NCBI GenBank assembly: GCA_041859045.1
Contig: JBHELB010000039.1
Span: forward strand, 9,958-73,957
Origin: Candidatus Hydrogenedentales bacterium
Lineage (GTDB): Bacteria; Hydrogenedentota; Hydrogenedentia; Hydrogenedentales; SLHB01
Reading direction: 5' to 3'
Length of the DNA stretch: 64,000 nucleotides
This document shows positions 10,148-31,041 of this stretch, piece by piece. The translations under genes and the position numbers were made by a program. The notes beneath the pieces are model-generated. The model searched no databases and was not told the DNA's origin. It was given only the letters and a program-made list of their open reading frames with translations. The stretch's first letter is position 1. The number at the start of each line of letters is the position of its first letter.

Positions 10148-10936
10148 ATGAGCGCGGGACGCAAACATAAGGGCGAAGAAGCCCACGAAAACGAGGAGCG
10201 GTGGCTGCTCACGTACGCTGACCTTATTACGCTGCTCATGGTGTTTTTCGTGGTGTTGTACGCGATGTCGCGTGTGGATTCGACCAAGTTTCAGTCGCTC
10301 ATTTTTGCGATGCGCGAGGCCTTCAACAATATGCCGACGACGCCGGTGCCGACGCAAGATCGCGGCGGTCTCGAAGCGGGTCAGGCGCGCACGTTTCCAA
10401 ATCGTCCAGGAAATCCGCCCTTGAGCGCGAATCCGGTTCAGGACAGGCTCAAGCAAAATGAAGCGGAGAAGCGCGCGGAGGAGCGAACCAAGCTGAAGGA
10501 GCGCATTGAGCAACTTGTGGCCGAACGCAACCTCAGCAAGGTGGTCAATGTCTCCGAGCGGCCTGGCAATGGGAATTTGGTGGTTCGTCTTTCCGACTCG
10601 CTGCTTTTTGAGCCGGGCAGCAGCATAGTATCAGAGAGTTCGAGACCTTTGTTGGATAGTCTGACGGACGTGCTGAGAGATACCGGAAAGTTTGTGCGCA
10701 TTGAGGGACACACGGACAACATTCCCATCAGCACCGCGCGGTATCAATCGAACTGGCAGCTTTCGACGGACCGCTCCACGAGCGTGTTGATGTACATGCA
10801 GAGACGCGGCATCGGGCCGAGTATGCTCAGCGCGAGCGGCTACGGCGAGTATCGGCCCATCGCGCCCAACGATACGCCCGAGAGCCGCGCGCAGAACCGC
10901 CGCGTCGAGTTCGTTATTCTAGAGACTCCAGACTGA
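10148..10936 (+). CDS. motB: flagellar motor protein MotB (OmpA-like C-terminal domain)
   Basis: N-terminal TM plug region LLTYADLITLLMVFFVVLYAMS; C-terminal OmpA motif NRRVEFVILE. Confidence 0.8.
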   Translation: MSAGRKHKGEEAHENEERWLLTYADLITLLMVFFVVLYAMSRVDSTKFQSLIFAMREAFNNMPTTPVPTQDRGGLEAGQARTFPNRPGNPPLSANPVQDRLKQNEAEKRAEERTKLKERIEQLVAERNLSKVVNVSERPGNGNLVVRLSDSLLFEPGSSIVSESSRPLLDSLTDVLRDTGKFVRIEGHTDNIPISTARYQSNWQLSTDRSTSVLMYMQRRGIGPSMLSASGYGEYRPIAPNDTPESRAQNRRVEFVILETPD

Positions 10937-10980
10937 CCTGTCGTTCACGTTCGTTTCGCGACCGCCCGAAAGGAACACCC

Positions 10981-12228
10981 ATGCAAACACTCAGGCTTGG
11001 CTTCATTGGCGCGGGCTTCATTGCGAAATTTCAGGCACAAGCGTTGCGGTCCGTGCGCGGTTTTGATCTGGCCGCGGTGCACGCGCTGCGCGGAGCGGAG
11101 GAACTGGCCGATTTCGCGCGGCGCAACGGCCTCGGGGAACCGCTAGTCTGCCCGAGCGTGGCGGAGTTGTGCAACCGGGTCGATGTCGTGGCCGTGTTCG
11201 CGCCCAATTACGTGCGAGTGGAACTCGTGGGGCAAGTGGCGGACGCTGTGCGCGCCGGCGCAGCGCTCAAGGGCATCATCTGCGAAAAGCCGCTGGGCCG
11301 GACCGTGGCGGAAGCACGCGAACTGGTGCGGCTCGCGGAGCAAATGGGCATTCCCACGGCGTACTTTGAGAATCAACTGCACATGAAGGCCGTGCGCGCG
11401 CCGTTGGCACAGCTCGAACAGGTGCAACGCGCGATGGGGCCGATGACGTTGGCGCGTAGCGCCGAGGAACACGCCGGTCCACACGAGGGATGGTTCTGGG
11501 ATCCCACGCGGCAGGGCGGCGGTGTGCTCAGCGACATGGGGTGTCACAGCATCGCGTGCGATTGGATGGTGTTGACGCCGCTCGGCAAACCGCTGACTTT
11601 TCTGAAGCCGGTGGCGGTGAATGCCGAGGTCGCGTTGTTGAAGTGGGGCGAGGCGGCATACCGGCGCGATCTGCTGGCGCGTATGAACGTTGATTACGCG
11701 AAGACACCGGGCGAGGATTTTGCGACGGGGATGGTCACGTTTCTGAACCCCGGGACCGGGCAGCGCGTGAAAGGACAGTTCACGAACTCGTGGATGTACG
11801 ACAAGCAGGGGCTGCGGTTGTCTATGGAAGGCCTTGGGCCAGGATACGCGTTTGAGGTGAACTCGCTGCGGTCTCCGGTGGAAATCTTCATTGGCGACCA
11901 AGCGGCGGAGGCCGCCGCCAACGCCGAGCTGGCGCTGGAGAAGGCGACGGCCTCGCGTGGACTGCTGGCGGTGGAGACGAACGAGGCCGATCTCTACGGC
12001 TATGTGGACGAGCTGATTGATGCGCGGCAAGCGTTTCTAGAGGGGCGCGATGCGCTGGCGAACTGGGCGTATGGCCTCGAGATCACCAAGTTGTGCCAGG
12101 CGGCGTATCTCTCCGCGGAGCAAGGGCGGACGATTGACCTCACCGACCCGGCGATGCAAAAGACGCTTGAGACGTATGTTTCGCTGATAGCCCAGGGGCG
12201 CGGGGCAGAGCAACTGCATGTCCGCTGA
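10981..12228 (+). CDS. Gfo/Idh/MocA family oxidoreductase
   Basis: N-terminal Rossmann motif GFIGAGFIAKFQ; typical length. Confidence 0.8.
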   Translation: MQTLRLGFIGAGFIAKFQAQALRSVRGFDLAAVHALRGAEELADFARRNGLGEPLVCPSVAELCNRVDVVAVFAPNYVRVELVGQVADAVRAGAALKGIICEKPLGRTVAEARELVRLAEQMGIPTAYFENQLHMKAVRAPLAQLEQVQRAMGPMTLARSAEEHAGPHEGWFWDPTRQGGGVLSDMGCHSIACDWMVLTPLGKPLTFLKPVAVNAEVALLKWGEAAYRRDLLARMNVDYAKTPGEDFATGMVTFLNPGTGQRVKGQFTNSWMYDKQGLRLSMEGLGPGYAFEVNSLRSPVEIFIGDQAAEAAANAELALEKATASRGLLAVETNEADLYGYVDELIDARQAFLEGRDALANWAYGLEITKLCQAAYLSAEQGRTIDLTDPAMQKTLETYVSLIAQGRGAEQLHVR

Positions 12229-12254
12229 CCGCGCGGCGATGGGAATCTAACGGC

Positions 12255-14114
12255 ATGTGTGGAATCTGCGGCATTGTCGATCCGGAGGGCGTCCCACCGT
12301 CGCGCCTTGAGGCGATGAATGCGGCGCTGGTTCACCGCGGGCCGGATGACCACGGCGCTTGGATCGGCGCGGGCGCGGGGCTTGCCATGCGGCGGTTGAG
12401 TATTATCGACCTCGCGGGCGGTCGTCAGCCGATGAGCAGCGACGACGGGCGTGTCGTCGTGGTGTTCAACGGCGAGATCTACAACTTTCGCGAGCTGCGC
12501 GCTGAACTCGAAGCGCTCGATCATTTCTTTCGCACGCAGAGCGACACCGAAGTCGTTCTGCGCGGCTACGAGGCCTGGGGCGACGGCGTGCTTACGCGGC
12601 TCAACGGCATGTTCGCCATTGCCATTTACGACCAGCGCGACGAGCGTCTTATGCTCGCGCGCGATCGTGCGGGCATCAAGCCGCTGTTTTACGCGCATGA
12701 CGGCGATACGCTGGTGTTCGCGTCGGAACTGGGCGCATTGCTGCAAGGGGGCGTCAAGCCGGGGCCGCTGAATGCGGGCGCGCTCGATGCGTATTTCACG
12801 TTTCTCTACATCCCTGCCCCGGACACCATCTATGCGAATATTCTGAAACTGTTGCCCGCGGAGAAATTGGTGTTTCGGCGCGGACGGCTCACGCGGGAGC
12901 GGTATTGGCAGCCGCGTTATCAAGCGGACTCGAGTTGGACGCTCGACAGCGCATCGGAGCGGTTTCTTGAGTTACTCGACGATTCCGTGCGGCTTCAGCG
13001 CGTGGCCGATGTGCCGCTCGGGGCGTTTCTGAGCGGCGGACTCGATTCCTCGGCGGTCGTGTCGAGCTTGTGTCGCGTGTCGGATCGGGTGAAGACGTTC
13101 ACGATCGGCTTCGACGATGCTCAGGCCGACGAATTGAAGTTTGCGCGTATTGCCGCACGGCATTTCGGCACCGAGCATACCGAGGAGATGTTGCGGCCGG
13201 ATCTCGTTTCGTTGACGCCGCGCATCGCATCGCATTTCGGCGAGCCCTTTGCCGATTCCTCGGCGCTGCCGACGTGGATCGTGTCGGAGATCGCCCGGCG
13301 ACACGTGACGGTCGCGCTGTCTGGCGACGGCGGCGACGAACTGTTTGCCGGGTACACTTGGACACGCATGGCGCTGGCCGTCAATCGGTACCGGTCGCGG
13401 GTGAACGAGGACTTGCGCAATGCCGCGCGCACGATCCTCGCGGGACTTCCGGCGTCGCCGTGGTTTAACAAAGTTCGGCGCTTCAACGACGACAGCTTTC
13501 TCGAGCCGCAGGACGTGTTCCGACGACGGCAAACGTGTTTTGACGCGGCGCAACGGTCCGCATTGTATCAGCGGCCTCTTGCGGCGGCGGTGATGGGCGA
13601 CGCGACGAATCGTTTTGCGGCGCATGCGCGGGCCGCGCGGGCGCTCAGCTTGGGCGACGGCATGCTGTACCACGATTTCATGATGTATCTTCCCGACGAC
13701 ATTCTCACCAAGGTTGACCGCATGAGCATGGCGCACTCGCTGGAGGCGCGTGTGCCGTTGCTCGATCACCGCCTGATCGAGTTCGCGGCGACGGTGCCGT
13801 TTGCGATGAAGCTTCGCGGGCGCACCAGCAAGTACATCATGAAACATGCGCTGCGTGCGCGTTTGCCGAAGGCGCTGTTGCGCCAACGGAAGCAGGGATT
13901 TGCGATTCCCATACACCGTTGGTTTCGCGAGGAACTGCGGGATCATTTTCAGGACGTCGTGCTCTCGCCCGGGGCGCATTGTGTGGAGGTCTTGCGGGCG
14001 GACGCCGTGCGCGCGATCTTTGATGCCCATATTTCACGCAGGGAGAACTACGGCCATCATCTTTGGGCGTTGTTGATGTTTGAGCACTGGTCGCGGCAGA
14101 AGCCGGCCAGATGA
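12255..14114 (+). CDS. asnB: asparagine synthase (glutamine-hydrolysing)
   Basis: MCGICGI N-terminal nucleophile; SGGLDSS PP-loop. Confidence 0.9.
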   Translation: MCGICGIVDPEGVPPSRLEAMNAALVHRGPDDHGAWIGAGAGLAMRRLSIIDLAGGRQPMSSDDGRVVVVFNGEIYNFRELRAELEALDHFFRTQSDTEVVLRGYEAWGDGVLTRLNGMFAIAIYDQRDERLMLARDRAGIKPLFYAHDGDTLVFASELGALLQGGVKPGPLNAGALDAYFTFLYIPAPDTIYANILKLLPAEKLVFRRGRLTRERYWQPRYQADSSWTLDSASERFLELLDDSVRLQRVADVPLGAFLSGGLDSSAVVSSLCRVSDRVKTFTIGFDDAQADELKFARIAARHFGTEHTEEMLRPDLVSLTPRIASHFGEPFADSSALPTWIVSEIARRHVTVALSGDGGDELFAGYTWTRMALAVNRYRSRVNEDLRNAARTILAGLPASPWFNKVRRFNDDSFLEPQDVFRRRQTCFDAAQRSALYQRPLAAAVMGDATNRFAAHARAARALSLGDGMLYHDFMMYLPDDILTKVDRMSMAHSLEARVPLLDHRLIEFAATVPFAMKLRGRTSKYIMKHALRARLPKALLRQRKQGFAIPIHRWFREELRDHFQDVVLSPGAHCVEVLRADAVRAIFDAHISRRENYGHHLWALLMFEHWSRQKPAR

Positions 14115-14171
14115 GCCGAACCCGGGCGCGTGCTACACTGTTGTGCGTCGTTACTCAGGAGGAAATGCGCG

Positions 14172-15125
14172 ATGCGTATGCGGTATTTGGGAAAGACTGG
14201 GGTGAGCGTTTCCGAGATTTGTTTGGGAACGATGACGTTTGGCAACGAAGCGGACGAAGCGACGTCGGCGGGGCTGATGGACCATGCATTCCAGGCGGGT
14301 GTGAACTTTTTTGACACGGCGAATATTTACAACGGCGGCCGCTCGGAGGAGATCGTGGGGCGGTGGCTGAAGGGACGCCGCGAGGCGATTGTGCTCGCGA
14401 CGAAGTGCCATTTCCCCACGGGCGACGGCCCGAACGAGCGTGGCAGCTCGCGCCGGAACATTCTGCTTTCGGTGGAGAAGAGTTTGGCGCGGCTCGGAAC
14501 GGACTGGATCGATCTGCTGTACCTTCACCATTGGGACTCCAACACGGCGATTGAAGAGTCGTTGGCGGCCGTGGACGCCTTGGTGCGTCAGGGGAAAGTG
14601 CTGTATGCGGCGGCATCGAATTTCGCGGCGTGGCAAGTGATGAAGGCGGCGGGTATTGCTGAGCGGCGCGGTTTCGGGCCGATTACGGCGATACAGCCCA
14701 TGTACAACTTGCTCAAACGCCAGGCGGAGGTTGAGATTTTGCCGATGGCACAGAGCGAGGGAATCGCGGTGTGTCCGTATAACCCGATGGCGGCGGGAAT
14801 GCTGACGGGCAAGTATCTGCGCGGCGAGCAGGGACGGCTCGATGTCAATCAGGTGTACAAGAAGCGCTACGGCGCGGAGCATTACCCGGAGGTGAGCCGG
14901 GACTTCGTTGTGTATGCCCAGGAACGCGGGGTGTCCCCGGCGGCGTTGGCGGTCGCGTGGGTGGCGTCGCATCCGGCTGTTACGAGCGCGATCATCGGGG
15001 CGCGTAATCTGGATCAGCTTCGCGACACCTTGGGGTGCGCCGCGATAGCGCTTACGGCGGAGGAACGTGCGGAAATCTCAGCGCTGTCGCCCGCACCGCC
15101 CTTGGCTACCGACCGCGAGGGGTGA
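14172..15125 (+). CDS. aldo/keto reductase
   Basis: Starts MRMRYLGKTGVSVSEICLGTMTFG with RBS aggagg 10 nt upstream; AKR family motifs. Confidence 0.85.
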   Translation: MRMRYLGKTGVSVSEICLGTMTFGNEADEATSAGLMDHAFQAGVNFFDTANIYNGGRSEEIVGRWLKGRREAIVLATKCHFPTGDGPNERGSSRRNILLSVEKSLARLGTDWIDLLYLHHWDSNTAIEESLAAVDALVRQGKVLYAAASNFAAWQVMKAAGIAERRGFGPITAIQPMYNLLKRQAEVEILPMAQSEGIAVCPYNPMAAGMLTGKYLRGEQGRLDVNQVYKKRYGAEHYPEVSRDFVVYAQERGVSPAALAVAWVASHPAVTSAIIGARNLDQLRDTLGCAAIALTAEERAEISALSPAPPLATDREG

Positions 15126-19621: not shown

Positions 19622-20710
19622 ATGGCGGATCTCGACAAGTACCTGAAAATGATGGTCGATTTTGGGGCGTCGGACCTTCATTTTTGTACTGGGTGTAAAC
19701 CGATTTTCCGGAAGGATGGAAGCCTGACGGCGCTTCGGAACGAGGAAGTGCTGGATAGCGTGACGGCAAAACGAATGATCTATGAGATCACGCCTGCGGC
19801 GAATGAGAAGGAGTTTAATGAGGTCTGGGACTCGGATTTTGCATACGAGTTAGAGGGGGTGGGACGTTTTCGCTGCAACGCGTTCATGGACCACAAGGGG
19901 ATGGGGGCGGTGTTTCGCCTGATTCCGACCGACGTGTTGACGTGCGAGCAGCTCGGCTTGCCCGACGCGGTGAAGAAGTTTTGCACGTTGAACAAGGGGC
20001 TGGTGTTGGTGACGGGGCCGACGGGCAGCGGGAAGTCGACGACGCTGGCAGCGTTGCTGGACCAGATCAACGCGACGCGAAGCGACCACATCATCACGAT
20101 CGAGGATCCGATCGAGTTTGTGCATAAGAACAAGCGGTGTCTGGTGAATCAGCGCGAGGTGCACCGGCACACGAAGAGCTTTCGTGCGGCGCTGCGTGCG
20201 GCGCTACGTGAGGATCCGGACATCGTGCTGGTGGGCGAGATGCGCGACCTGGAGACGACGCATATTGCGATTGAGACGGCGGAAACGGGGCACCTGGTGT
20301 TTGGGACGTTGCACACGACCACGGCGATCTCGACGGTGGACCGCTTGGTGGATCAGTTCCCGCCGGAACAGCAGACCCAGATTCGCGTGATGTTGGCGTC
20401 GTCGTTGAAGGGCGTGGTGGCGCAGAATCTGTTGAAGAAAAAAGGCGGCGGGCGCGTGGGGGCGCTCGAAGTGTTGGTGGTGAATCAGGCAGTATCGGCG
20501 CTGATTCGCGACGGGAAGACGAGCCAGATCATGAGCATCATGCAGACCGCGAAGCGGGAAGGCATGACGCTGTTGAACGAAGAGTTGACGCGCTTCGTGA
20601 AAGAGGACGTGGTGGAGGCGGAAGAGGCATGGCGCAAGGCAGTGGATAAAGAAGATCTGCTGAAGCATTTTGAGTCGGCGGGGATTTCGTTCAAGGCGCC
20701 TGCGGAGTAA
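19622..20710 (+). CDS. pilT: type IV pilus twitching motility ATPase PilT
   Basis: Walker A GPTGSGKST; PilT family-wide conservation; start MADLDKYLKMM. Confidence 0.9.
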   Translation: MADLDKYLKMMVDFGASDLHFCTGCKPIFRKDGSLTALRNEEVLDSVTAKRMIYEITPAANEKEFNEVWDSDFAYELEGVGRFRCNAFMDHKGMGAVFRLIPTDVLTCEQLGLPDAVKKFCTLNKGLVLVTGPTGSGKSTTLAALLDQINATRSDHIITIEDPIEFVHKNKRCLVNQREVHRHTKSFRAALRAALREDPDIVLVGEMRDLETTHIAIETAETGHLVFGTLHTTTAISTVDRLVDQFPPEQQTQIRVMLASSLKGVVAQNLLKKKGGGRVGALEVLVVNQAVSALIRDGKTSQIMSIMQTAKREGMTLLNEELTRFVKEDVVEAEEAWRKAVDKEDLLKHFESAGISFKAPAE

Positions 20711-20763
20711 GGGGGAAGAACACGGACTGACACGGAGAGAGATAGAGAGAGACGAGGGTGATG

Positions 20764-20798
20764 CGCCCGGCACAGATGCCGGGCGCATTTGTTTTTTG
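20764..20798 (+). terminator. rho-independent terminator (9-bp stem gcgcccggc / gccgggcgc followed by T-run)
   Basis: Perfect inverted repeat with 6-nt loop followed by atttgttttttgg, 54 nt after the pilT stop. Confidence 0.8.
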
Positions 20799-20859
20799 GG
20801 TCAGCGCGCTGCAACGCGGTGGGCGGGTTGATGAATGGAGTCAACAGCGAGGTGAGGCG

Positions 20860-22110
20860 ATGGTGAACTGGCTGGGCTGGTGGAAGCGAGGCGCGGGGGC
20901 GCGTGTGGAGCAGAGGTCGCCGGGCGAACGATTTGGGACGGTGTCGTTGACGGAGGACATGAGGGGCTTGATGCGGGCGGGGGAATCCTTTGTTCGGCTT
21001 CCGAGCGAGACGCCGTTCGCGATGCTCGAAGTGTACCGGTTTTTGCGCGATGCGATTCCGGATGTTAGCGACGCGGTGTGGACGTGGAAGCGCTTGTGTC
21101 AGACCGGCTACGACGTGGAGATTTTAGAGGCGTCGTCGGAGATGGCGCGCGCTCGGGCGGAGCGCCTGCTGAAGGCCCTGGACCGGCGGGTGAATAGCGG
21201 GGACCGCGGGATGGACGGTCTGCTGGACGTGTTTTATGCGTCGCTGTTTACGTATGGCGCGGCGGCGTTGGAGATTGTGCTGTCGCCGAGCCGGGAGTCG
21301 ATTGCGGACGTGGTGCCGGTGGACGTTTGGACGGTGCGGTTCAAGCGTGAACGTGGGCAGTTGCAGCCGTATCAGGTGATCGATGGGGAAGAGATTCGGT
21401 TGCCCCGCGAGCGGTTCGTGTATGTGGGGTTGGACCGCGACGGGACAAATCCTTATGGGCGCTCGATGCTTCGCTCAATCCCGTTTGTGGTGAAGATTCA
21501 GCAGCGGCTGATCGAAGACATGGCGAAGGCGACGCACAACGCGGGGTGGGCGAAGCTGCACGTGAAGTATTCGCCGGAGTCGCGCGAGCGCGGGGAGTCG
21601 GTGGAGGCATATGGGCAGCGGATCGCGGGGAACTTTGAGGCGCTGCGCACGCGGCTGAGCGGGTTGGAGGCGGATCAGAATCTGGTGACGTACGACAACG
21701 TGGACGTGTCGTTGATCCGGGGGGATTCGCAGAGCCGGATTTTCTACGACAACCTGAAGGCGATTGAGGAGCAGGTGATCACGGGGATGCACTTGATGCC
21801 GATCCTGATGGGCCGGAATTACGGGACGACGGAAACGTATGGAACGGCGCAGTTCGAGATCGTGAATCGTCAGGTGGAGGCGGTGAACCGCAGCGTGAAG
21901 CGGATTTTGGAGCGCCTCTACAACTTCGAGCTGGCGCTGATGTGGGGCGAGGCGCGGGCGCGCGTGCGGATGCGGACGAATCGGACGGTGGATGTGCTGA
22001 AAGAGGCGACGGCGCGTGGAAAAGAGATTGCGAATGTGTTGGCGCTGCGCGACGCGGGTCTGATGGATGCGGCGGGGACTGCGGAGATGCTGGGAATTGG
22101 CGGGAACTAG
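20860..22110 (+). CDS. phage portal protein-like (HK97-family-like)
   Basis: Start MVNWLGWW after the terminator (RBS gaggtgagg). Motifs resembling portal family consensus: G..L..FYASL..G.AALEI, NPYGRSML, C-terminal IEEQVITGMHLMPILMG. Confidence 0.6.
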   Translation: MVNWLGWWKRGAGARVEQRSPGERFGTVSLTEDMRGLMRAGESFVRLPSETPFAMLEVYRFLRDAIPDVSDAVWTWKRLCQTGYDVEILEASSEMARARAERLLKALDRRVNSGDRGMDGLLDVFYASLFTYGAAALEIVLSPSRESIADVVPVDVWTVRFKRERGQLQPYQVIDGEEIRLPRERFVYVGLDRDGTNPYGRSMLRSIPFVVKIQQRLIEDMAKATHNAGWAKLHVKYSPESRERGESVEAYGQRIAGNFEALRTRLSGLEADQNLVTYDNVDVSLIRGDSQSRIFYDNLKAIEEQVITGMHLMPILMGRNYGTTETYGTAQFEIVNRQVEAVNRSVKRILERLYNFELALMWGEARARVRMRTNRTVDVLKEATARGKEIANVLALRDAGLMDAAGTAEMLGIGGN

Positions 22111-22136
22111 CGAGGAAATGCGGGGAGGACGGCGTG

Positions 22137-22826
22137 ATGGGGTTGGAACCATTTGTATTTCGTCATTGGGGCGCGGTGATGTCGCGCGAGACGCCGGAGA
22201 ACGCGGAGGCGGACGTTGCGGCGGTGAACCAGTTCGCGTTGCGTCCGTTGGCGCGGGAGGAATTCGCGGCGTTTCGACTGGACCTCTGCAATAACCAGGT
22301 GGACCGCCATTTCAGCCGGTTCCCCGAGGAAGAGCTGACGCGAATCACGGAGATGACGCCGGGACGTCCGTTGATGGAGCGGCATGACCTGCGCGGATCG
22401 TTGCCGCGGGGAACGTTTTTTCGGGCGCAGGTGCACCGGGATAGCGAACGCGTGTCGGTGCGGCCGGATGTGTATGTGCTACGCACGCGGGAGAACGAAG
22501 ATTTCATTTTGAACATCGAGGGGGGCGTGTACCGCGAGACGTCGATCGGGTTCTCATTTCAAACGCCGGAGTGCTCGGTGTGCGGGAAGGATTTGCGCAC
22601 CTGTGATCACGTGCCGGGGCGGAGTTACGGGGATGCCTTGTGTCACTACGTGATGCGCGGGGTGCTGGAGGTCATCGAAGGGTCGGTGGTGCCTGCGGGA
22701 TCGCAGGGGACGACGTTTGTGTCGCAGACGCGGGGACTTCCGCTGGCGGAGGCGCTCGACGTGGCGCGGCGGGCGTACCACGCGCCGATCGTGTTGCGGC
22801 CAGGCCGTGCGTGGTCGGAGGAGTAG
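22137..22826 (+). CDS. hypothetical protein of phage-head cluster (Cys/His motif CSVCG...CDH)
   Basis: 229 aa, RBS ggggagg. Sits where a prohead protease or scaffold is expected, but no S78/U35 or ClpP motifs recognised. Confidence 0.5.
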   Translation: MGLEPFVFRHWGAVMSRETPENAEADVAAVNQFALRPLAREEFAAFRLDLCNNQVDRHFSRFPEEELTRITEMTPGRPLMERHDLRGSLPRGTFFRAQVHRDSERVSVRPDVYVLRTRENEDFILNIEGGVYRETSIGFSFQTPECSVCGKDLRTCDHVPGRSYGDALCHYVMRGVLEVIEGSVVPAGSQGTTFVSQTRGLPLAEALDVARRAYHAPIVLRPGRAWSEE

Positions 22827-22828
22827 AG

Positions 22829-23053
22829 GTGAAAACGGCAAGAGGTACTGACGAGCGAGGACCGGAGCGGGAGACTTGCGCGTATCACTTGGCGCACGAG
22901 GCGGAGTTCCGGGCGCTCTCGCGAGGATTGGATGAAGTGAAGGGACGCGTGCACGGCATCGAGACCAAGGTGGAGCGGGGCGTGCTGTTGCTGGTGGCGA
23001 ATCTGGTGGGTGTGGTGATGACGCTGGTGCAGCAGTTGCTGCGTTCGATGTGA
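22829..23053 (+). CDS. small hypothetical protein with C-terminal hydrophobic helix
   Basis: GTG start 3 nt after the previous stop; 74 aa; C-terminal LLLVANLVGVVMTLVQQLL. Confidence 0.4.
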   Translation: MKTARGTDERGPERETCAYHLAHEAEFRALSRGLDEVKGRVHGIETKVERGVLLLVANLVGVVMTLVQQLLRSM

Positions 23054-23062
23054 GGGGAAGAC

Positions 23063-23761
23063 ATGTACGGGAGAGTCTTTATTGAAGAGCGGGCCGGGAA
23101 CCCGGACGCGCTGGGCGAAGAGTGGGACGGGCGGTTCGTCGTGCATCGTCACCGTGATGCGGAGGGGCCGCATGTCGATTTGCGTCTGGAACAGGACGGG
23201 TTTCTGGCGGGCTGGCGGATCGCCGGGGAATTCGAGAGCGGTGCATGGGCGGAAGAGAAGGCGGCGCATCCCGTGCACTGGCTGGACCGCGACGGAGACG
23301 CGGTACGTGAGGACGCTGGGGTGTATCGCTGGATCGAGCGGGGGCCGCTGCGGCGCGTGGTGTGTCTGAAGGGCGAGCACGGCGTGCGCTGGTTGCGTGT
23401 GGAGGCGCATGAGGGGCTTCCGGCGGGCGTGGCGTGCGCGGTGCGGTGCGCGTTGGACGAAGCGGAACTGGGGCCGGAGTCGGCGCTGAGCCTGGTGAAG
23501 GATGGTCTGGTGGCGCGGAAGAGGGCGACGGCGCGGTTGCTGGGGTTGGGGCGCGAGCTGGACGGCGACGCGTTTGATGTGGAGGCCTGGCGGCGTGCGT
23601 TGGCGGGGCTCTCGCTGGAGGAGGTGCAGTCGCACCTGCGCGCGTACGAGGTGCGCTTTGACGCGAAATATCCGCCGCTTCCGGTATCGCGTCCGGAACG
23701 GCTGGACGCGGGAGCGTCAGTGCGGGGGGATGCACTGGCGATCGCGCGTGAGTCGATGTAG
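23063..23761 (+). CDS. LigD-type 3-prime-phosphoesterase (PE) domain-like protein
   Basis: N-terminal FVVHRHRDAEGPHVDLRLEQDGFLAGWRI matches the LigD PE signature FVxQxHxAxxLHYDxRLE..G.L.SWA (both His, Asp and Arg conserved). Confidence 0.5.
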   Translation: MYGRVFIEERAGNPDALGEEWDGRFVVHRHRDAEGPHVDLRLEQDGFLAGWRIAGEFESGAWAEEKAAHPVHWLDRDGDAVREDAGVYRWIERGPLRRVVCLKGEHGVRWLRVEAHEGLPAGVACAVRCALDEAELGPESALSLVKDGLVARKRATARLLGLGRELDGDAFDVEAWRRALAGLSLEEVQSHLRAYEVRFDAKYPPLPVSRPERLDAGASVRGDALAIARESM

Positions 23762-23793
23762 CGGCGAAAGAACGAAGAGAAAGGGAGACGGCT

Positions 23794-24174
23794 ATGGCGT
23801 TTGGAGATTTGGGGGGCGCGGTGACGGAACTGGTGATCACGTGTCAGACGAAGGCAAGCGGTGCGGTGAGCATTGCGCGCGGAGACGCGGTGAAGCTGGC
23901 GGGTCCGTACACGGTGGACAACGCGACGAGCGCGGAAGACGTGGTTTTTGGCGAAGCGTTGGCACCGGCGACGACGAACGGGGCGGCGATCCCTGTGAAG
24001 GTGCGCGGGATTTCGGTTCTTGCGTACACGGGAGATGCGCCGGTGGTGAATGGCGTTGTGGGGGTGTTGGCGTCGGCGACGGCGGGGAAGGTGAAGGCCC
24101 CGGCGACGGGCAACGGCGTGGGCAGGAATGTGAAGGTGGACACGGCGGCGGGGTTGGTGCACGTGTTGCTGTAG
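23794..24174 (+). CDS. small Gly/Ala/Val-rich phage head protein (DUF2190-like, decoration/cement candidate)
   Basis: 126 aa, low-complexity G/A/V-rich, immediately upstream of the capsid-like gene. Confidence 0.4.
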   Translation: MAFGDLGGAVTELVITCQTKASGAVSIARGDAVKLAGPYTVDNATSAEDVVFGEALAPATTNGAAIPVKVRGISVLAYTGDAPVVNGVVGVLASATAGKVKAPATGNGVGRNVKVDTAAGLVHVLL

Positions 24175-24198
24175 ACGGTTTGGGGAGAGGAAACGACG

Positions 24199-25248
24199 AT
24201 GGGGTATCGAGACGATATGGTGAAGGAGCGAGTGGCGTTTTTGTCGCGCGGCGCGGACGGGCTGCGTCAGGTGCGCGGGCGTGAGTTGTTTGAGACGTTG
24301 CATGGGTTGGGGCTGTCGTACGGTCAGTATTTCCGTGCGATGGGAACGAACCTGCAGGACTACTGCGCGCAGGAGTTTGGCGTGGACGTGAGCCGGATCA
24401 CGGTGGACCGGTTCTTTCAGTCGGATCCGAACGCGAAGTGGCTGTTTCCGGACATGGTGCGCGAGGCGGTCATTGCGGGAATGAAGCGCAAGCCGGTGTA
24501 CCGCGATCTGATCATCCGCGACGAGCCGGTAGTGGGTACGGCGTACGACGTGCCGTACGTTCAGGAGTCGGCGGACGACGAGGAGTTGCGCGGCGTTGCG
24601 GAAGGCGCGGCGATTCCGGAGTCGGAAATTCGCTACGGCAGCCGAATTGTACGTCTGGACAAGAAAGGGCGCGGCGTGCTGGCGTCGTACGAGGCGGTGC
24701 GCCGGATGTCGGTGGACATGCTGCGCGTTCACTTGCAGCGCATGGGCGAGCGTCTGGGCCGAAACCTGGACGCGCGTTTGGCGACGGTGTTGGTGTCGGG
24801 CGATTCGTCGGGCGCGAGCACGGCGGCGGTGACGCTGAACACGGCGACGGCGAATACGTGGACGTATGCGGACATTCTGTCGGGATTCATGAAGTTGACG
24901 TTGGACCATTACTTCACGCCGACGCACATGCTGGCGAATGGGGCGCTGACGGAGACGATCCTGAAACTCGACGAGTTCAAGGACTCGGCCCTTTTCGACT
25001 TCGCGAAAACGGGGAACCTGCCGACGCCGGTGGGCGTGAAGTTGGTGCCGATGCCGGAACAGCCGGAGAACAAGCTGACGATCCTGGACGCGGGCTATGC
25101 GGTGGAGAAACTGACGGAGCAAGACCTGTTGGTGGAAAGCGACAAGCTGATCAACCAGCAGTGGGAGCGCACGTACCTGACGGTCGTGACGGACTTCGCG
25201 GTGATCTATGAGAAGGCGCGCGTGGTGGTGCAGAGCGATTGGTCGTAG
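24199..25248 (+). CDS. putative phage major capsid protein
   Basis: 349 aa, position after portal and small decoration-like gene, balanced composition. No specific family motif recognised by eye. Confidence 0.45.
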   Translation: MGYRDDMVKERVAFLSRGADGLRQVRGRELFETLHGLGLSYGQYFRAMGTNLQDYCAQEFGVDVSRITVDRFFQSDPNAKWLFPDMVREAVIAGMKRKPVYRDLIIRDEPVVGTAYDVPYVQESADDEELRGVAEGAAIPESEIRYGSRIVRLDKKGRGVLASYEAVRRMSVDMLRVHLQRMGERLGRNLDARLATVLVSGDSSGASTAAVTLNTATANTWTYADILSGFMKLTLDHYFTPTHMLANGALTETILKLDEFKDSALFDFAKTGNLPTPVGVKLVPMPEQPENKLTILDAGYAVEKLTEQDLLVESDKLINQQWERTYLTVVTDFAVIYEKARVVVQSDWS

Positions 25249-25311
25249 CGGAGGGGGCGGCGAAGGGCGCGGGCGCGAAAGCGTTCGCGCCCTTTTGCAT
25301 GGAGATGAGAC

Positions 25312-25725
25312 ATGGCGAGCGTGGCGACGGAAGAAGGGGTGCGGGCTCGGTTTCAATGGAGCGAGGAAGACGTTCCCGAATCGCTGATCACGTTGGCGAT
25401 AGAGGATGCGCATAACCGGTTGGTGCGGGCGTTGACGGCGGAATCGTGGGGTGAAACGCCCGCGTCGGGCGTGGTGTTGGGCGAGACGTTGCTGGCGGGG
25501 GCGCAGGTGTACCGCTTGCTGGCGGCGCGCGAGGCGTTTGATCGGCGGGACGTGCGCGTAGGCGGTCAGGAGAGCGTCGGGATCGGGCGCTTCGAGGCGC
25601 TGAGCCGCACGGCGACGGCGCTGGAGGACGAGGCGTGGGCGGTGCTAGAGGCCTTTACGCGTATGCATGAGGGACGGGCTCCGATGAGTGCGTCGGACAC
25701 GGTTCCGGTGCTAGGAGAGGGATAA
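25312..25725 (+). CDS. putative head-tail connector (gp6-like) protein
   Basis: 137 aa; pattern VRARFQWSEEDVPESLITLAIEDAHNRLVRALT resembles gp6-like connector consensus. Confidence 0.35.
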   Translation: MASVATEEGVRARFQWSEEDVPESLITLAIEDAHNRLVRALTAESWGETPASGVVLGETLLAGAQVYRLLAAREAFDRRDVRVGGQESVGIGRFEALSRTATALEDEAWAVLEAFTRMHEGRAPMSASDTVPVLGEG

Positions 25726-25728
25726 GCC

Positions 25729-26412
25729 GTGGCGATCACGCTGGGAACGCTGTCGTTGGACGAACGATACGTGGCGGTGAAAGAGCGATTCGAAGAGGTC
25801 GGCGGACGCGACGAACGGCGCGTCGAGTTGACGGGACTTGTTTCCGATGTGTCGACGGTTGCGGGAATTGAGGCGCGACTGGAGGAGATTCTTCGGGAAG
25901 CGTCGACAAACCGCAGTTGGACCACATTTTCCGTGCGCGCGGGACGACGGCTATGGGTGCGGCGGTTGTCCTACGAACGCGAAGTGCAGCGCGGACGGAA
26001 GACGGGGGTATTCAAGCTGGTGTTGGAGGTGCGCGATTTCTTTGAGGAGTCGGACACGGAGACCGTGGTGACGTGGGAGGCTTTTTCGGGAAGCACGCGG
26101 GAATTTGCGAGTAGTGGGACTGGGGCGACGCCGATTTCCGCGGTGATTGTTCCGGAAGTGGACGTGACGTCGTGGGCGCTTAGCGACGGGACGAACACAC
26201 TGTCGGCGCAAGGCGTGTTCGCTGCGGGTGTGGCGATACGCGTGGATGGCGTGGCGCGGAAGGTGTGGGTTGGCGAGCGCGAGATCACGGGATATGTGGA
26301 AGGCACGTTTCCTGAGGTGCGCCCGGAAGGGACGACGTTGACGTATACCGACAGTGATGAAGGCGCGCATGCGGCGGCGATCACGGTTTCGTATCGCGAT
26401 CGGTGGTGGTAG
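25729..26412 (+). CDS. hypothetical protein (phage-like cluster)
   Basis: 227 aa, 3-nt gap from previous gene. Confidence 0.5.
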   Translation: MAITLGTLSLDERYVAVKERFEEVGGRDERRVELTGLVSDVSTVAGIEARLEEILREASTNRSWTTFSVRAGRRLWVRRLSYEREVQRGRKTGVFKLVLEVRDFFEESDTETVVTWEAFSGSTREFASSGTGATPISAVIVPEVDVTSWALSDGTNTLSAQGVFAAGVAIRVDGVARKVWVGEREITGYVEGTFPEVRPEGTTLTYTDSDEGAHAAAITVSYRDRWW

Positions 26413-26415
26413 TTC

Positions 26416-28155
26416 ATGCAATACCAAATCGAAGTGCTGGAGCAGGGCGGCTTTCGCAAGGCGGTATATGACGATGTGCTGTTGCTTGAGGCGGAGCGCG
26501 GGCAGGTGGACCGGGGCGTGCGCGTGGAGGGGTTGTTGCCGCCGGGACTGGCGGAATTGGGGCCGGGAGACCGGATCCGTGTGTTGGTGGACGGCGCGTT
26601 GTTTTGCGAGGCCCCCGTGCGCCGGGTGACGCCGCAATGGGGCGATCTCAAGACGCTGATTCTCGATAAATACGTGAACGCGCACGAGCTGGTGTACGTC
26701 GAGGCGTCAACTTCGGGGCCGGAGTGGAACAATCGGGTGCAGGTGGCGCTGTTGGCGTGTCCGGTGAAGACGGCGGTGCAGCAGGTGATTGACAGGGCGT
26801 TGGGTGCGGTTCACTACGGCGTGGCGCATACGGCATTTCCAGACGGCGCACAACGCGAGTATGCGAAGTTTGAAGCGCGGAAGACTGCAGGAAACGAACT
26901 GGAGACGGGCGGCATTTCAGCGGGCCAGTGGGTGGGCGCGCCACGGTTGGACGCGAGCGAGGCGTATGCCAAGGATGGCGACACGATCGCGGGGTTGAAG
27001 GTGGACGGCGCGGCGTGGCCGGACCTGCGGCTGCTCATGATTGACGCCGAGGAGACGTCGAAGAATGGTCACGCGGTGTCGCGTCACCCCGAGGTCACGG
27101 CGATGACGGCGGAAGAGTATGCGGCGTCGGCGTATGCGTGGCGCGCGCAACGATCGAAGGAGTCGCTGCAGGCGTTGATCGACGGGCACGGAATTGATGC
27201 GGTGGAACTGAACCCACATCGGAACGCGGCGGGCGCATTCGACGATCGCGTGGATGCGTATGGGCGCTACGTGGGGCTGATCTACGGCGGCGGACTTTGT
27301 TTCAACGCGGCAATGGTCGAGCAGGGAATGGCGGAAATCTATTTGTATGAAGAGGGCCGCTATCACGAGCCGTCGATGGCGTTGAAGGATTACTACTCGT
27401 ACGTGGGGCCGTCGGAAGACACGCTGGCGGTCGTGGGCGGGGGCCCGGTGAGCATGGCGGTGGACGCAGGGCTGATGGAGGCGTTGATGGCGCTGGCGTT
27501 GATGGGGGGCGGGTGCCGTTGGGGGGTGAGGGCGGACGGGACCGTGTGGTTTTGCGAAGCGAGTACGGCCGAGCACGTGGCGTTCGAGTCGCCGTCGGAG
27601 ACGGGCGTGAGCTGGGGGATGTCCGATATAGGTCTCGTGAACGAGTTGACATTCGAAGGAGGTGAGTTGGCGTTGCCGCTAACGAAGACCTATGCGCGAG
27701 AGGCCAGTGTCAGGCGCTACGGAAGCGCGTCGGGACGACTGGTGCATTACGGTCTTAACGCGGAGCAGGACGTAGACCGCTTGGCGGCGGCGTTACTCGA
27801 TGATTTGGCGTATCCATCGTTAACGGGCGACGTCGTGTTTCATCGGGGAAAGGGAGACGTGCATCCCGGCGAATTGATCGAAATCCGTGGAGCGCCGTTT
27901 CGGCGATATCACGAGGCATTGTCTGGGGAATGGGGCGGGCGCTACGCAGGGCGACTGGTGGGGGCGGTGGCGTCGGTGACGCACCGATTCACGGGGCGTC
28001 GCGTGCGGACGACCGCGACGCTGACGAGTCCGGGGCGCGCGGTTGAGAATCCCCTGCGGTTTATTGTGCGCAGTCAACCGAGCGAAGCGGAGATGTATGC
28101 GTTTCGATTGGACGACGAGGTGGTTGGATTGGACATGAGCTATCACCTGGACTGA
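26416..28155 (+). CDS. large hypothetical protein with embedded SNase/thermonuclease-like domain
   Basis: Residues about 190-360 (AKDGDTIAGLKVDG..RLLMIDAEETSKNGH...DAYGRYVGLIYGGGLCFNAAMVEQGMAEIY) align motif-for-motif with staphylococcal nuclease (DGDT, RLLxxDxPE, DKYGRxLAY..N..LV.G.A). Confidence 0.6.
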   Translation: MQYQIEVLEQGGFRKAVYDDVLLLEAERGQVDRGVRVEGLLPPGLAELGPGDRIRVLVDGALFCEAPVRRVTPQWGDLKTLILDKYVNAHELVYVEASTSGPEWNNRVQVALLACPVKTAVQQVIDRALGAVHYGVAHTAFPDGAQREYAKFEARKTAGNELETGGISAGQWVGAPRLDASEAYAKDGDTIAGLKVDGAAWPDLRLLMIDAEETSKNGHAVSRHPEVTAMTAEEYAASAYAWRAQRSKESLQALIDGHGIDAVELNPHRNAAGAFDDRVDAYGRYVGLIYGGGLCFNAAMVEQGMAEIYLYEEGRYHEPSMALKDYYSYVGPSEDTLAVVGGGPVSMAVDAGLMEALMALALMGGGCRWGVRADGTVWFCEASTAEHVAFESPSETGVSWGMSDIGLVNELTFEGGELALPLTKTYAREASVRRYGSASGRLVHYGLNAEQDVDRLAAALLDDLAYPSLTGDVVFHRGKGDVHPGELIEIRGAPFRRYHEALSGEWGGRYAGRLVGAVASVTHRFTGRRVRTTATLTSPGRAVENPLRFIVRSQPSEAEMYAFRLDDEVVGLDMSYHLD

Positions 28156-28170
28156 CGAGAAGGAGGGGGA

Positions 28171-28686
28171 ATGCGAGGCAAGGGGTATACGAAGACGGCC
28201 TGGCAGGTGCAGGAACGGCCCGTGTCGTCGTCGAAGCTGAACACGTGGGACGATCGTATCGAGCAGGCATTGGAGCGGGCGTTCTTTTACGTGGGGCAGA
28301 CGGCGGGTGATGAGAACGGCGTGTTGCGCGGCGCGACATCATTGGATTTGAAGACGACTCAGGCGTCGCCGGCGGGACGGAGTGTGGTGGTGAATGCGGG
28401 GTGCGCGTTGATTGCGCGATGTCCGTATCGCTTGGGGTCGAGTATGGCCACGGCGGAGGTAACGCCGCCCGCGACGTATCCGCGCGTGGATTTGGTGCAG
28501 GCGCGGCTGGACTCGTGGGATGTGAGCGTTCGTACGGGGACCGAAGCGGCGTCGCCGATGGCTCCAGAGGCGGAGGCGAACTGCATTGCGTTGGCGGAAC
28601 TGCATCTGCGGCCAGGAATGGTGAGCGTCAAGGATACGGACGACGGCGTGAATGGGTACATTGTGGATGTGCGGGCGTTCTTGTAG
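28171..28686 (+). CDS. hypothetical protein (phage-like cluster)
   Basis: 171 aa ORF, co-directional. Confidence 0.45.
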   Translation: MRGKGYTKTAWQVQERPVSSSKLNTWDDRIEQALERAFFYVGQTAGDENGVLRGATSLDLKTTQASPAGRSVVVNAGCALIARCPYRLGSSMATAEVTPPATYPRVDLVQARLDSWDVSVRTGTEAASPMAPEAEANCIALAELHLRPGMVSVKDTDDGVNGYIVDVRAFL

Positions 28687-28702
28687 AAGAGGAGAAGAAG
28701 CG

Positions 28703-29074
28703 ATGGATGGTAGCGTGAGTGAATGGGGCCTGACGTTGGCGACGATGGTGTTTGGGGCGCTGTGGACGGCGTTTCGATCGAGCGACGTGTTGGGGCGCGT
28801 GCGCGATGAACGGTTCCGAAAAGCGTTGAGCGCGTTGGAGGCGGGCGTGGAGCAGACGTACCGGACGTATGTGCGGGCGCTGAAGGAGTCGCGCGCGGAC
28901 GGGAAACTGACGGACGAGGAGCGACGCCAGGCGCGGTTGCTGGCGCGGGACACCGCGATGGCGTTTGGCCGTACGCAGGGCGTCGACGTGTTGCAGACGC
29001 TTGGGCGTGAGTACATCGACGTGTGGATCGCAAAATTGGTGAATGGCCTGAAGATCGGCGCGGGTTTGGCGTAG
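28703..29074 (+). CDS. small hypothetical protein with N-terminal TM helix (last gene of cluster)
   Basis: Start MDGSVSEWGLTLATMVFGALWTAF with RBS agaggagaag. Confidence 0.4.
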   Translation: MDGSVSEWGLTLATMVFGALWTAFRSSDVLGRVRDERFRKALSALEAGVEQTYRTYVRALKESRADGKLTDEERRQARLLARDTAMAFGRTQGVDVLQTLGREYIDVWIAKLVNGLKIGAGLA

Positions 29075-29081
29075 GGAATTC

Positions 29082-29128
29082 GGGGGGGATTCTTGCCGGA
29101 GGAGAATCTCCCCCAATCCTTTTCAAAG
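29082..29128 (+). terminator. hairpin (gggggggattct / agaatctccccc) with weak T tract
   Basis: Near-perfect inverted repeat 8 nt after the last cluster gene stop, followed by aatccttttc. Confidence 0.4.
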
Positions 29129-29252
29129 AGCGCACTTTCTCGTAAATGCACCCACCTTTCCTCTCGCGAAGAGTCCCACCTGCGAGTCAATACCCTTCAG
29201 ACAAGTTCACTTCTTTGCCGCTCAGAGCAGGCGTTTTCTGTCGATCGCCGGG

Positions 29253-29281
29253 TTGACAGTGCGGCCGATTTCGCCGATAAT
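29253..29281 (+). promoter_or_regulatory. sigma70-like promoter TTGACA-17-GATAAT
   Basis: Consensus -35 hexamer with exact 17-nt spacer to GATAAT; about 180-nt leader before the OMP gene. Confidence 0.55.
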
Positions 29282-29463
29282 GCGGCCGGGGGTGGGTCTT
29301 TGTTTTCGACCCAGACAGCAGTATTCGTCACTTACCCGGGCAAAAGTGCGCGGGTGAGGTGTGTCTGTGGCGCAAAACGAAGCTCATTCCGGATGGAGTT
29401 TTCATGTTATCGGGGATAGGGGACCGGTCTCTGACAAGGGGCCAAACGCGAAGGAGAAGGCAG

Positions 29464-31041
29464 ATGCGCAAGGGGCTTTTGGTGCTGGCTGTTGCGGCGA
29501 TGATGTTCTGCACGGCCGCCTCCGCCGAGCTGCAGAATGTGCAGGTTGGCGGCGAGGTTCGCATTATGGGGAACTGGATTCCGAACTGGGCGGTCGAGCC
29601 GGGGCCGTTGGAGATTCGGATTCCGGCGACGCAGTTGTTCAACCGTCCGATCGGCGACATGGTGACGCGTGGGGCGTTCAACGGCGCGGGCATCTTGAGC
29701 CCGTATGCGTGGGGCAACACGAACGACCTGCGTCTGATCGAAGAGCGCACGCGCGTGAACTTCAAGGCGGAGTTCACGGACAACGTGAGCGCGTTCATCG
29801 AGCTCGAGAGCTATGATTTTTGGGGCGAGGATTTCCGTTCGAACTACGTGACCGGCGCGGATGCGCGCGCGGCGACGGGTGATGACGTGGAAGTGTATCA
29901 GTCGTACATCGAGACGAGCGAAATGTACGGCTATCCGGTGTCGCTGCGCATTGGCCGCCAGGAATTGGCGTTCGGTAATCAGTGGCTGGTCGGGCCGAAG
30001 GACTTCGGCCCGTTCTTCCGCGGCCGTTCGTTCGATGCGATTCGCGCGACGTACGCGACGGACCTGTTCAAGGTCGACGCGTGGATGTCGAAGCTGAACG
30101 AAGGCGGCGTGGCGGAGCAGGACGGCGACGTCGATTTCTACGGCGTGTACGGCACGTACCTGGGCCTTGAGAACATCACGATCGACGCGTACTGGATGCT
30201 GGTCCGCGATGGCCGCAGCCTGAACGACACCAATCGTCTCTGGTTCGGCGAGTGGATCGAAGACGTGTTGAACCTGGATGACTACGACGTGACGAATCTC
30301 AACACGGTGGGTCTGCGCGGCGCGGGCAAAATCGACGCGTTCGATTTCGATGCGGAAGTGGCCTATCAGTTCGGCAGCGCGGATCAGGTTGGTTTCGCGT
30401 TCAAGCCGTTCACGTACGGCGACGACGGCGCGGACTACGGCGTGTGGGGCGCGAACCTGGGCGCGGGCTACACCTTCGACATGATGTGGCAGCCGCGCCT
30501 TCACCTGGGCTACACCTACTACGGCGGCGAAGACAACCGCGACATCAATTTCTGGCAGTGGCTGAATCCGTTCGACCTGCCGGAGGCGAGCGTCAGCTTC
30601 AACCGTCTGTTCACGAACGTGATGCACGGCGGTTTCCTCGATCTGCAGGGCGACTTTTCGAACGGCCACGTGTTCGAGGCCGACGTGATGGCGCACCCGA
30701 CCGAGAAGACGATGGTCATGCTGGGGCTGACCTATTTCATGGCCGACGAGACGTTCTCGTACCCGATGTTCGTGAAGATCGGCAAGTTCCGCGTGCCGGT
30801 GGCCCCGAACCTGTCCTTCTGGGATAAGGGCGGCGACAGCGACATCGGTTGGCAGCTCGACCTGGTCGGCGCGTACAACTACAGCGAAGACCTGTCGTTC
30901 ATGCTTCACTGGAGCCACATGTTTGTGGGCGACGGCCTGAGCGACGGCAACTTCAACGCCTGGAACGGCCTACTGTTCACCGGCGGCGACGGCGAAGACG
31001 ACTCCGACTACTACTGTGTCGAGACGCGTATTCGCTTCTAG
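29464..31041 (+). CDS. outer-membrane beta-barrel protein (porin-like)
   Basis: Signal peptide MRKGLLVLAVAAMMFCTAASA; alternating aromatic/Gly-rich beta-strand pattern; terminal Phe (TRIRF); RBS aaggagaagg. Confidence 0.65.
   Translation: MRKGLLVLAVAAMMFCTAASAELQNVQVGGEVRIMGNWIPNWAVEPGPLEIRIPATQLFNRPIGDMVTRGAFNGAGILSPYAWGNTNDLRLIEERTRVNFKAEFTDNVSAFIELESYDFWGEDFRSNYVTGADARAATGDDVEVYQSYIETSEMYGYPVSLRIGRQELAFGNQWLVGPKDFGPFFRGRSFDAIRATYATDLFKVDAWMSKLNEGGVAEQDGDVDFYGVYGTYLGLENITIDAYWMLVRDGRSLNDTNRLWFGEWIEDVLNLDDYDVTNLNTVGLRGAGKIDAFDFDAEVAYQFGSADQVGFAFKPFTYGDDGADYGVWGANLGAGYTFDMMWQPRLHLGYTYYGGEDNRDINFWQWLNPFDLPEASVSFNRLFTNVMHGGFLDLQGDFSNGHVFEADVMAHPTEKTMVMLGLTYFMADETFSYPMFVKIGKFRVPVAPNLSFWDKGGDSDIGWQLDLVGAYNYSEDLSFMLHWSHMFVGDGLSDGNFNAWNGLLFTGGDGEDDSDYYCVETRIRF

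Follow-up and report, generated by a model that had tools for sequence, protein, structure and literature searches.

Why would a gene resembling a DNA end-healing enzyme lie among phage-type head genes? The question is raised by a 64,000-nucleotide stretch of a Candidatus Hydrogenedentales genome (contig JBHELB010000039.1), called the window throughout, in which an open reading frame (ORF) of 232 aa at 23063..23761 resembles the 3′-phosphoesterase (PE) domain of LigD and is flanked by portal and capsid genes. To our knowledge, PE-type 3′-phosphoesterases are known solely as end-healing modules of non-homologous end joining (NHEJ), either as a domain of LigD or as small stand-alone proteins. 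Our analysis supports the initial annotation of this ORF as a LigD-PE-like protein in a head cluster. The PE-like barrel proves to be one half of a two-domain protein, its metal site is nearly invariant in the family, and its gene holds a fixed place in a cassette. We see an even chance that the product is a head protein in the scaffold position that loads a probably active, Mn-dependent 3′-end-healing enzyme into a phage-derived particle. All cassette features described here lie on the + strand, with coordinates counted from the first nucleotide of the window.

A LigD-type barrel at the N-terminus

The ORF begins with an ATG located 10 bp after the stop of the preceding small ORF, with a GAGG-type Shine-Dalgarno sequence just 5′ of it. 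Because M1 is invariant across 33 aligned homologues, we take this start codon to be right. The family comprises 258 homologues of ~230 aa each. The AlphaFold2 model of the window protein (predicted local distance difference test, pLDDT, 90.3) places eight strands within residues 2–116 (2–8, 23–32, 35–44, 47–54, 61–70, 81–93, 97–104 and 107–116), followed by a helical domain. The strands form an N-terminal β-barrel spanning aa 1–117 (23063..23413), and the N-terminal string quoted in the initial annotation is indeed present in the ORF.

From the single sequence, the resemblance to PE is thin, with phmmer retrieving the archaeal PE 3P43 from the PDB at E 5e-4; it is solid because a family profile and a fold prediction can be added. 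Searched against the PDB, a 33-sequence family profile matched 3P43 at E 2.8e-6 over residues 17–107 and 3P4H at E 3.9e-5. The Pseudomonas aeruginosa LigD (PaeLigD) PE structures 2LJ6 and 3N9B, together with 5DMP, followed at E 0.03–0.04, which alone is not significant, and beyond PE structures this search gave no other credible match. An exhaustive search of 1.84 billion representatives with the same profile ranked its own narrow family first (35 representatives, E < 1e-30), and the alignments to small stand-alone PE-like proteins and to LigD proteins, which came next, cover residues ~23–117. Two of the profile matches, P0175 and P0180, pass the Pfam LigD_N model at 1.7e-15 and 2.4e-11, and one member of the family itself, P0312, has a precomputed PF13298 match.

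The fold comparison with PE, which the initial annotation had proposed, gave a predicted PE β-barrel. Foldseek ranks 1–7 among PDB structures are all LigD-PE (3P4H, 3N9B, 3P43, 3N9D, 5DMP and 2LJ6), with probability 1.00, E 4.5e-6 to 7e-4, 22–27% identity and a target TM-score of up to 0.62; structures of the triphosphate-tunnel (CYTH/TTM) class appear from rank 9 at 6–15% identity and E above 0.007. The PE resemblance of the front half exceeds chance. On the predicted model, residues ~1–117 form a compact, minimal eight-stranded barrel of the LigD PE superfamily.

The barrel shares its eight strands with the archaeal stand-alone enzymes MbaPE (3P43) and CkoPE (3P4H) and with the PaeLigD PE domain (3N9B, 2LJ6), and it is compact like the 118-aa CkoPE. 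Common to all are the motif F-V-x-x-x-H...H-x-D-x-R-L-E...H-P and the Mn and phosphate ligands (Arg52/His84). The PE enzymes have a helix linking strands 5 and 6 and a long β4–β5 loop, both missing here, and the N-terminus (aa 2–8) appears to supply the eighth strand. Unlike the PE enzymes, the PE-like protein also adds a conserved helical domain of ~115 aa, and its gene lies in a capsid module rather than beside Ku or ligase.

The nearest relatives of the barrel outside the family by profile (P0175–P0216) are stand-alone PE-like proteins of 111–135 aa with the motif HxDLMLE. In their alignment, 13 of 14 have Met and one has Phe at the Arg52 position, the equivalents of His42, His48, Asp50 and His84 are present in all 14, and that of Tyr88 in 12. 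Judging by these residues, they look like an uncharacterised PE-like subfamily.

Conservation of the active site

In PaeLigD, Mn2+ is bound by His42, His48 and Asp50, the phosphate is liganded by Arg52, His84 and Tyr88, both activities require all six of these residues, and Gln40, Glu82, Lys66 and Arg76 tune one activity or the other (PMC3300020). We mapped these positions through alignments to PE structures and counted their conservation over 144 full-length family members. The active-site motif H28-R-H30-R-D32-x4-H37-V-D39-L-R41-L-E43 (23144..23191) pairs H28, H30, D32, H37, D39, R41 and E43 with Gln40, His42, Asp43, His48, Asp50, Arg52 and Glu54. A second motif, H69-P-V-H-W73 (23267..23281), is the counterpart of His84...Tyr88 in the profile alignment.

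The catalytic His, His, Asp and Arg named in the initial annotation correspond to H30 and H37 (each kept in 140/144) and to D39 and R41 (each in 143/144), and they are joined by the His84 equivalent, H69 (143/144). All five are kept together in 140 of the 144 members, and they rank 5th to 26th in conservation among the 232 positions, where mean identity over the barrel is ~55%. Around this core the picture differs: the Tyr88 position (W73) is Trp in 141/144, the Gln40 position (H28) is His in 136 and Gln in 7, and the Glu82 position (A67) varies among Ala, Gly, Met and Ser. The polar residues R24, D32, E43, R52 and K66 are invariant and have no described PE counterpart.

According to Nair et al. 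2010, the PE active site reportedly lies on the outer, hydrophilic face of the barrel. Because the site is on that face, its conservation argues for a ligand-binding or catalytic role and not for fold stability. We read the metal and phosphate core as under selection and probably functional. By the same alignments, this PE-like family differs in the peripheral residues that govern the substrate preference of LigD.

The C-terminal domain

The initial annotation had described a stand-alone PE domain. That description does not hold, as the conserved helical region of ~115 residues makes up half of the protein. The C-domain proper (aa 118–205, 23414..23677) consists of predicted helices at 121–133, 138–170, 173–180 and 185–202, and is followed by a Pro-rich linker (YPPxPVSRPE) and a short C-terminal helix at 222–230 (together aa 206–232, 23678..23761; pLDDT 63–70), with P204, P205 and S209 conserved. 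Mean identity over the C-terminal half is 54%, so that it is conserved like the barrel, and D147, G148, R152, E196 and R198 are invariant. Each locus encodes one C-domain protein.

A C-domain profile searched against 5.8 billion proteins retrieved its own family and one further protein, P0260, and nothing else. P0260 is a 233-aa metagenomic protein in which a long coiled coil takes the place of the barrel and precedes a C-domain that matches that of the window protein with 37% identity in the core region (E 1e-8). On its contig, P0260 is followed directly by a homologue of the 126-aa gene that lies immediately 3′ of the PE-like gene in the window. A second swap occurs in one metagenome-assembled genome of Hydrogenedentota type (locus L072, 9230..10279), where a phrog_16951-family protein carries the C-domain as an in-frame C-terminal fusion; this locus has neither the PE barrel nor the small upstream gene. 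P0260 and the 229-aa phrog_16951-family protein encoded upstream in the window both match phrog_37798 weakly, in different parts of its 490-position profile.

Classical scaffold arrangements include a coiled-coil protein encoded before the capsid gene and a preceding head-module protein fused to the scaffold (lambda C/Nu3 and related). Because the P0260 and L072 swaps resemble these arrangements, we read the C-domain, by analogy, as what looks like a scaffold-type assembly module. Like the phage scaffolding proteins and protease–scaffold fusions (lambda C/Nu3, P22 gp8, phi29 gp7), the PE-like protein is encoded between a portal and putative protease on one side and decoration-like and capsid genes on the other, has a helical C-terminal half, and contains a C-domain that occurs elsewhere, on one contig each, joined to a coiled coil (P0260) or fused to the upstream head-module protein (L072). 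Unlike them, it has no detectable sequence or fold similarity to any known scaffold, and its N-terminal half is an enzyme-type β-barrel rather than a coiled coil.

Position of the gene in a conserved cassette

The PE-like gene belongs to a cassette of ~8.3 kb that runs from the portal gene to a 140-aa ORF (window 20758..29114). The same cassette, in the same order, was found at 71 loci of GTDB species representatives (~70 species), nearly all labelled Hydrogenedentota, about once per genome and on chromosomal contigs of up to 7.9 Mb, and it is present too in three metagenomic contigs that we looked up directly. Across ~70 species the order portal, phrog_16951 protein, small protein, PE-like protein, phrog_4588 protein, capsid protein is kept, which gives the PE-like gene a scaffold-type placement in the head module at ~70 loci, between the portal (and the putative protease) and the major capsid gene.

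The location between portal and capsid genes was thus correctly called in the initial annotation: the Mu-type portal (20758..22110) matches PF06074 at 2.1e-9 and phrog_3753 at 1.2e-47, and the HK97-fold major capsid protein (24199..25248) matches PF25209 at 4.5e-15, phrog_3922 at 2.2e-51 and TIGR01554. Identity to the window proteins across loci is 55–87% for the capsid protein, 52–76% for the portal and 38–69%, mostly 45–60%, for the PE-like protein. The description as a head morphogenesis operon stands as far as the head genes go; the element as a whole is not an ordinary prophage but a compact cassette with unrelated host flanks.

In the window these flanks are ordinary host genes encoding amidase, PilZ-domain, PilT-like and alginate-export-type proteins. 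The cassette is bounded: upstream of the portal no gene recurs in more than 6 loci, past the last gene none does so in more than 9, and genes for integration, packaging (terminase), replication or lysis do not recur in either flank. We recognised no terminase within the cassette, among its neighbours at the loci, or in the 20 window ORFs scanned, a set of ten large ORFs outside the cassette included; a terminase gene may lie in another part of the genome. Neither a tail tube nor a tape-measure gene was recognised in or beside the cassette.

Sequenced phages offer little that is similar. The PE-like protein has no PHROG match, 50,697 GenBank phage records gave no match to it or to two canonical small PE-like proteins used as queries, and the viral structures in BFVD gave nothing at E <= 1e-3. 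The capsid proteins of GenBank phages are at best 35% identical, and IMG/VR holds a single match, a 7.9 kb contig with the same cassette beside a TPR gene.

Proposed function and competing explanations

In the mechanism that we propose, the C-domain would dock the protein inside the assembling procapsid, in the manner of a scaffolding or internal protein, and docking would load a Mn-dependent 3′-phosphoesterase into the head. There, or after ejection together with the DNA, the enzyme would convert blocked 3′ ends (3′-phosphate or 3′-ribonucleotide) to 3′-OH. The blocked ends would plausibly come from the staphylococcal-nuclease (SNase)-type domain of a 579-aa tail-region protein in the same cassette (26416..28155; PF00565 4.9e-7), since SNase-type cleavage leaves 3′-phosphates, the substrate of PE phosphomonoesterases.

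Several observations weigh against this reading. Some concern the enzyme. As a single sequence, the protein scores 15.6 bits against the Pfam LigD_N model (PF13298; cut-off 31.1), over profile positions 2–54 of 107 only, and 21 bits against TIGR02777 (cut-off 144). The Pfam comparison that the initial annotation had suggested therefore falls below its cut-off, while the family-profile similarity to PE described above is significant. Because the curated thresholds are missed and Tyr88, Glu82 and Gln40 are absent, we file the protein as a divergent new branch of the PE superfamily and not, by the curators' rule, as a member of the LigD_N family. The replacement of Tyr88 by Trp, the loss of Glu82 and the change of Gln40 to His also mean that chemistry or substrate may differ from those of LigD PE. 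The metal histidines are lost in four divergent representatives (P0128, P0130, P0142 and P0153), and because these four lack them and L072 lacks the barrel, the putative activity is dispensable in some lineages.

Other such points concern packaging. The C-domain matches no described scaffold family or fold: it has no match in PHROGs or Pfam and no PDB sequence match, and a dedicated model (pLDDT 90.6) found no PDB fold match (best E 1.3). P0260 has no relatives among the 5.8 billion proteins searched, and each of the two domain swaps comes from a single metagenomic contig. In the capsid protein, ~80 residues precede the Pfam-matched region, so that it might carry a scaffold-like extension of its own. 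We infer capsid incorporation from gene position and the two domain-swap cases. Finally, an enzyme inside the head and a nuclease borne on the tail need not meet, which makes the SNase link speculative.

The main rival gives the barrel a structural role. It would have been exapted as an oligomerisation or structural module of a scaffold, in place of the usual coiled coil, and its His/Asp/Arg cluster would bind metal or phosphate, for example in DNA or the portal, with no turnover. The occurrence of the C-domain with a coiled coil in P0260 and in the barrel-less fusion of L072 is what such a history would produce, as is its retention in the four divergent members without metal histidines, and the changes at Tyr88 and Glu82 fit as well. 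We nevertheless regard this as unlikely: in all but four of the 144 members the five Mn and phosphate ligands are intact, these being among the most conserved positions, and conservation of surface residues is hard to explain unless a catalytic-type site is in use.

Somewhat less likely still is an active phosphoesterase with a substrate other than DNA ends, such as nucleotides, the 2′,3′-cyclic or 3′-phosphate ends of RNA, or some phosphorylated constituent of the cell envelope or the particle. All characterised members of the superfamily act on nucleic-acid 3′ ends (PMC3300020), and the gene lies in a head module of DNA-packaging type beside a nuclease-bearing protein. What speaks for such a substrate is the combination of a retained core metal site with changes at all three PaeLigD specificity residues, Gln40, Glu82 and Tyr88, and with new invariant basic residues (R24, R52 and K66).

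An improbable explanation is that the gene is a passenger, or 'moron', whose product heals ends for the benefit of the host, working in the cytoplasm with host NHEJ proteins and not in the particle. PE domains do normally work in NHEJ (PMC3300020), and other loci show unrelated insertions within the cassette. Unlike those variable insertions, the PE-like gene keeps its position in ~70 species and is tightly coupled to its neighbours. The C-domain of its product also occurs in a coiled-coil protein encoded at the equivalent place and, in L072, as an extension of the head-module protein encoded upstream. No Ku, ligase or polymerase-domain gene was seen in the cassette, the flanks of loci L001–L003 or the window ORFs scanned; the rest of the genomes was not searched.

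A chance or convergent resemblance, with the barrel belonging to another class such as the triphosphate tunnel metalloenzymes (CYTH), would accommodate the sub-threshold Pfam and TIGRFAM scores and the presence of CYTH/TTM structures lower in the Foldseek list and in BFVD, but is very improbable given that PE structures hold its first seven ranks, that the sequence profile matches PE proteins only, and that the motif-by-motif match takes in all metal ligands.

Other cassette genes and the nature of the element

The portal ORF as called from its GTG start contains a strong terminator-like hairpin (20760..20789; 13-bp stem and T-run) that lies 3′ of the PilT-like gene. Because this hairpin falls inside the GTG-start ORF, translation probably begins at the ATG at 20860 instead, which gives 416 aa as in locus L002; homologues are 416–457 aa long.

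The next gene (22137..22826) encodes the 229-aa head-module protein, which matches phrog_16951, a PHROG of unknown function, at 1.5e-35. A His (in MERHD) and a Ser (in ETSIGFSF) are invariant in this protein, which also carries a metal-ribbon-like CxxC...CxH motif and matches nothing in Pfam or the PDB even when searched as a profile. It may be an undescribed type of prohead protease. Directly 5′ of the PE-like gene lies a gene for a small protein of ~74 aa (22829..23053) with a coiled-coil-like N-terminal part and a hydrophobic C-terminal helix; it has no family match, and its homologues at the same position are 64–90 aa.

On the other side of the PE-like gene, the 126-aa virion structural or decoration-like protein (23794..24174) matches phrog_4588 at 9.3e-7 and is 43–78% identical across cassettes, mostly above 57%. 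The capsid gene is followed by a further terminator-like hairpin and by the gene for a 137-aa protein (25312..25725), whose order is conserved in 47 loci and which has no family match; its position suggests a head–tail connector. A Dit-like distal tail protein comes next (25729..26412; PF22768 1.3e-5, phrog_33). In the 579-aa protein that follows, the equivalents of SNase D21, R35, D40, E43 and R87, which we take to have catalytic roles, are kept in 35–38 of 38 homologues, and by this alignment the particle may bear an active Ca-dependent nuclease encoded here. The two last genes (171 aa and 140 aa, 28171..29074) are conserved in order, with weak PHROG matches to head or virion proteins for the 171-aa product only, and a terminator-like hairpin with a 13-bp stem and a T-rich tail (29082..29114) closes the cassette. 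The genes are on one strand, tightly spaced, and enclosed by terminator-like hairpins at both ends. GC skew in 20500..29500 (0.26–0.32) is markedly above that of the flanks, where six upstream windows give 0.08–0.23 and the seven downstream ones −0.07 to 0.15, although the cassette and its flanks have equal GC content (0.61–0.65).

Many loci carry an extra, length-variable gene (~270–620 aa) between the phrog_16951 gene and the small gene that is absent from the window (L009 7564..9417; L013 8473..9738; L015 7660..9345; L019 7210..8505; L042 7998..9674; L046 8902..9705; L068 2121..3677). Its N-terminus is conserved (PRYLEELRIGGGYG..DGGADLD), as is a C-terminal segment in several loci, and the two products tested, from L013 and L009, match Phage_depo_C weakly (E 0.03–0.04). 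It looks like a fibre or depolymerase-like diversity module. Two loci have other insertions: in L035 a 363-aa ORF, transposase-like by eye, lies between the capsid gene and the 137-aa gene (12174..13283), and in L054 ~4 kb of inserted ORFs separate the PE-like gene from the 126-aa gene (10744..14700).

We considered several known kinds of element. Host genes directly adjoin the cassette at either end, and no recurring gene for integrase, terminase, replication or lysis accompanies it, for which reasons an ordinary prophage was rejected. A phage-inducible chromosomal island or other satellite was rejected for want of integrase and replication genes, a tailocin or contractile injection system for lack of any recognised sheath or tube gene, and an encapsulin because portal, Dit-like and other tail-region genes are present. 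The conserved order, the presence of about one copy per genome and the unrelated flanks suggest, from gene content, a long-resident and possibly domesticated phage-derived element. A bolder proposal, to which we assign a low probability, is that the cassette encodes a phylum-wide domesticated virus-derived particle, a new viriform resembling gene transfer agents (GTAs), in which the scaffold has been replaced by a PE enzyme loaded into every head and paired with the tail SNase, the SNase cutting to 3′-phosphate and the PE enzyme healing to 3′-OH, in DNA delivery or acquisition.

Relation to known systems and significance

Enzymes are known to be carried into shells by encapsulin cargo loading and by engineered P22 scaffold-fusion cargo. 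By analogy, the PE-like protein would bring an enzyme into an HK97-fold shell by way of a C-terminal targeting or scaffold module. Unlike an encapsulin operon, the cassette has portal, Dit-like and other tail-region genes. Proteins that travel with delivered linear DNA or act on its ends are also encoded by phages, among them T4 gp2, Mu N and the Ku of mycobacteriophages Corndog and Omega, and the protein described here resembles them in concept; we know of none of these with a PE fold.

With GTAs and other domesticated particles of the RcGTA type (reviewed in PMC11841831 and PMC9953437), the cassette has in common a compact structural-gene cluster, about one copy per genome, conservation within a clade, host flanks and the lack of integrase and replication genes. 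It differs in that no terminase, tail tube or tape measure was recognised in or beside it, and that it is known here from its genes alone. Our literature searches turned up neither a GTA or phage-like particle nor such a cassette in Hydrogenedentota, and no virion or head module for which a PE domain had been reported.

What is new is that a PE fold whose metal site is clearly under purifying selection is linked, in a fixed gene of a head cassette, to a domain of capsid-assembly type; none of the sequenced phages searched has this combination of PE barrel and assembly-type domain. The cassette is a candidate domesticated particle in an uncultured phylum where none has been described, and its parts are small and soluble-looking, which makes them testable by heterologous expression without culturing the host. 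Should the PE-like protein prove to be both packaged and active, it would provide the first natural example known to us of a phage-type capsid that delivers or incorporates a DNA-end-repair enzyme, and a natural counterpart of the engineered P22 'scaffold-fusion cargo'.

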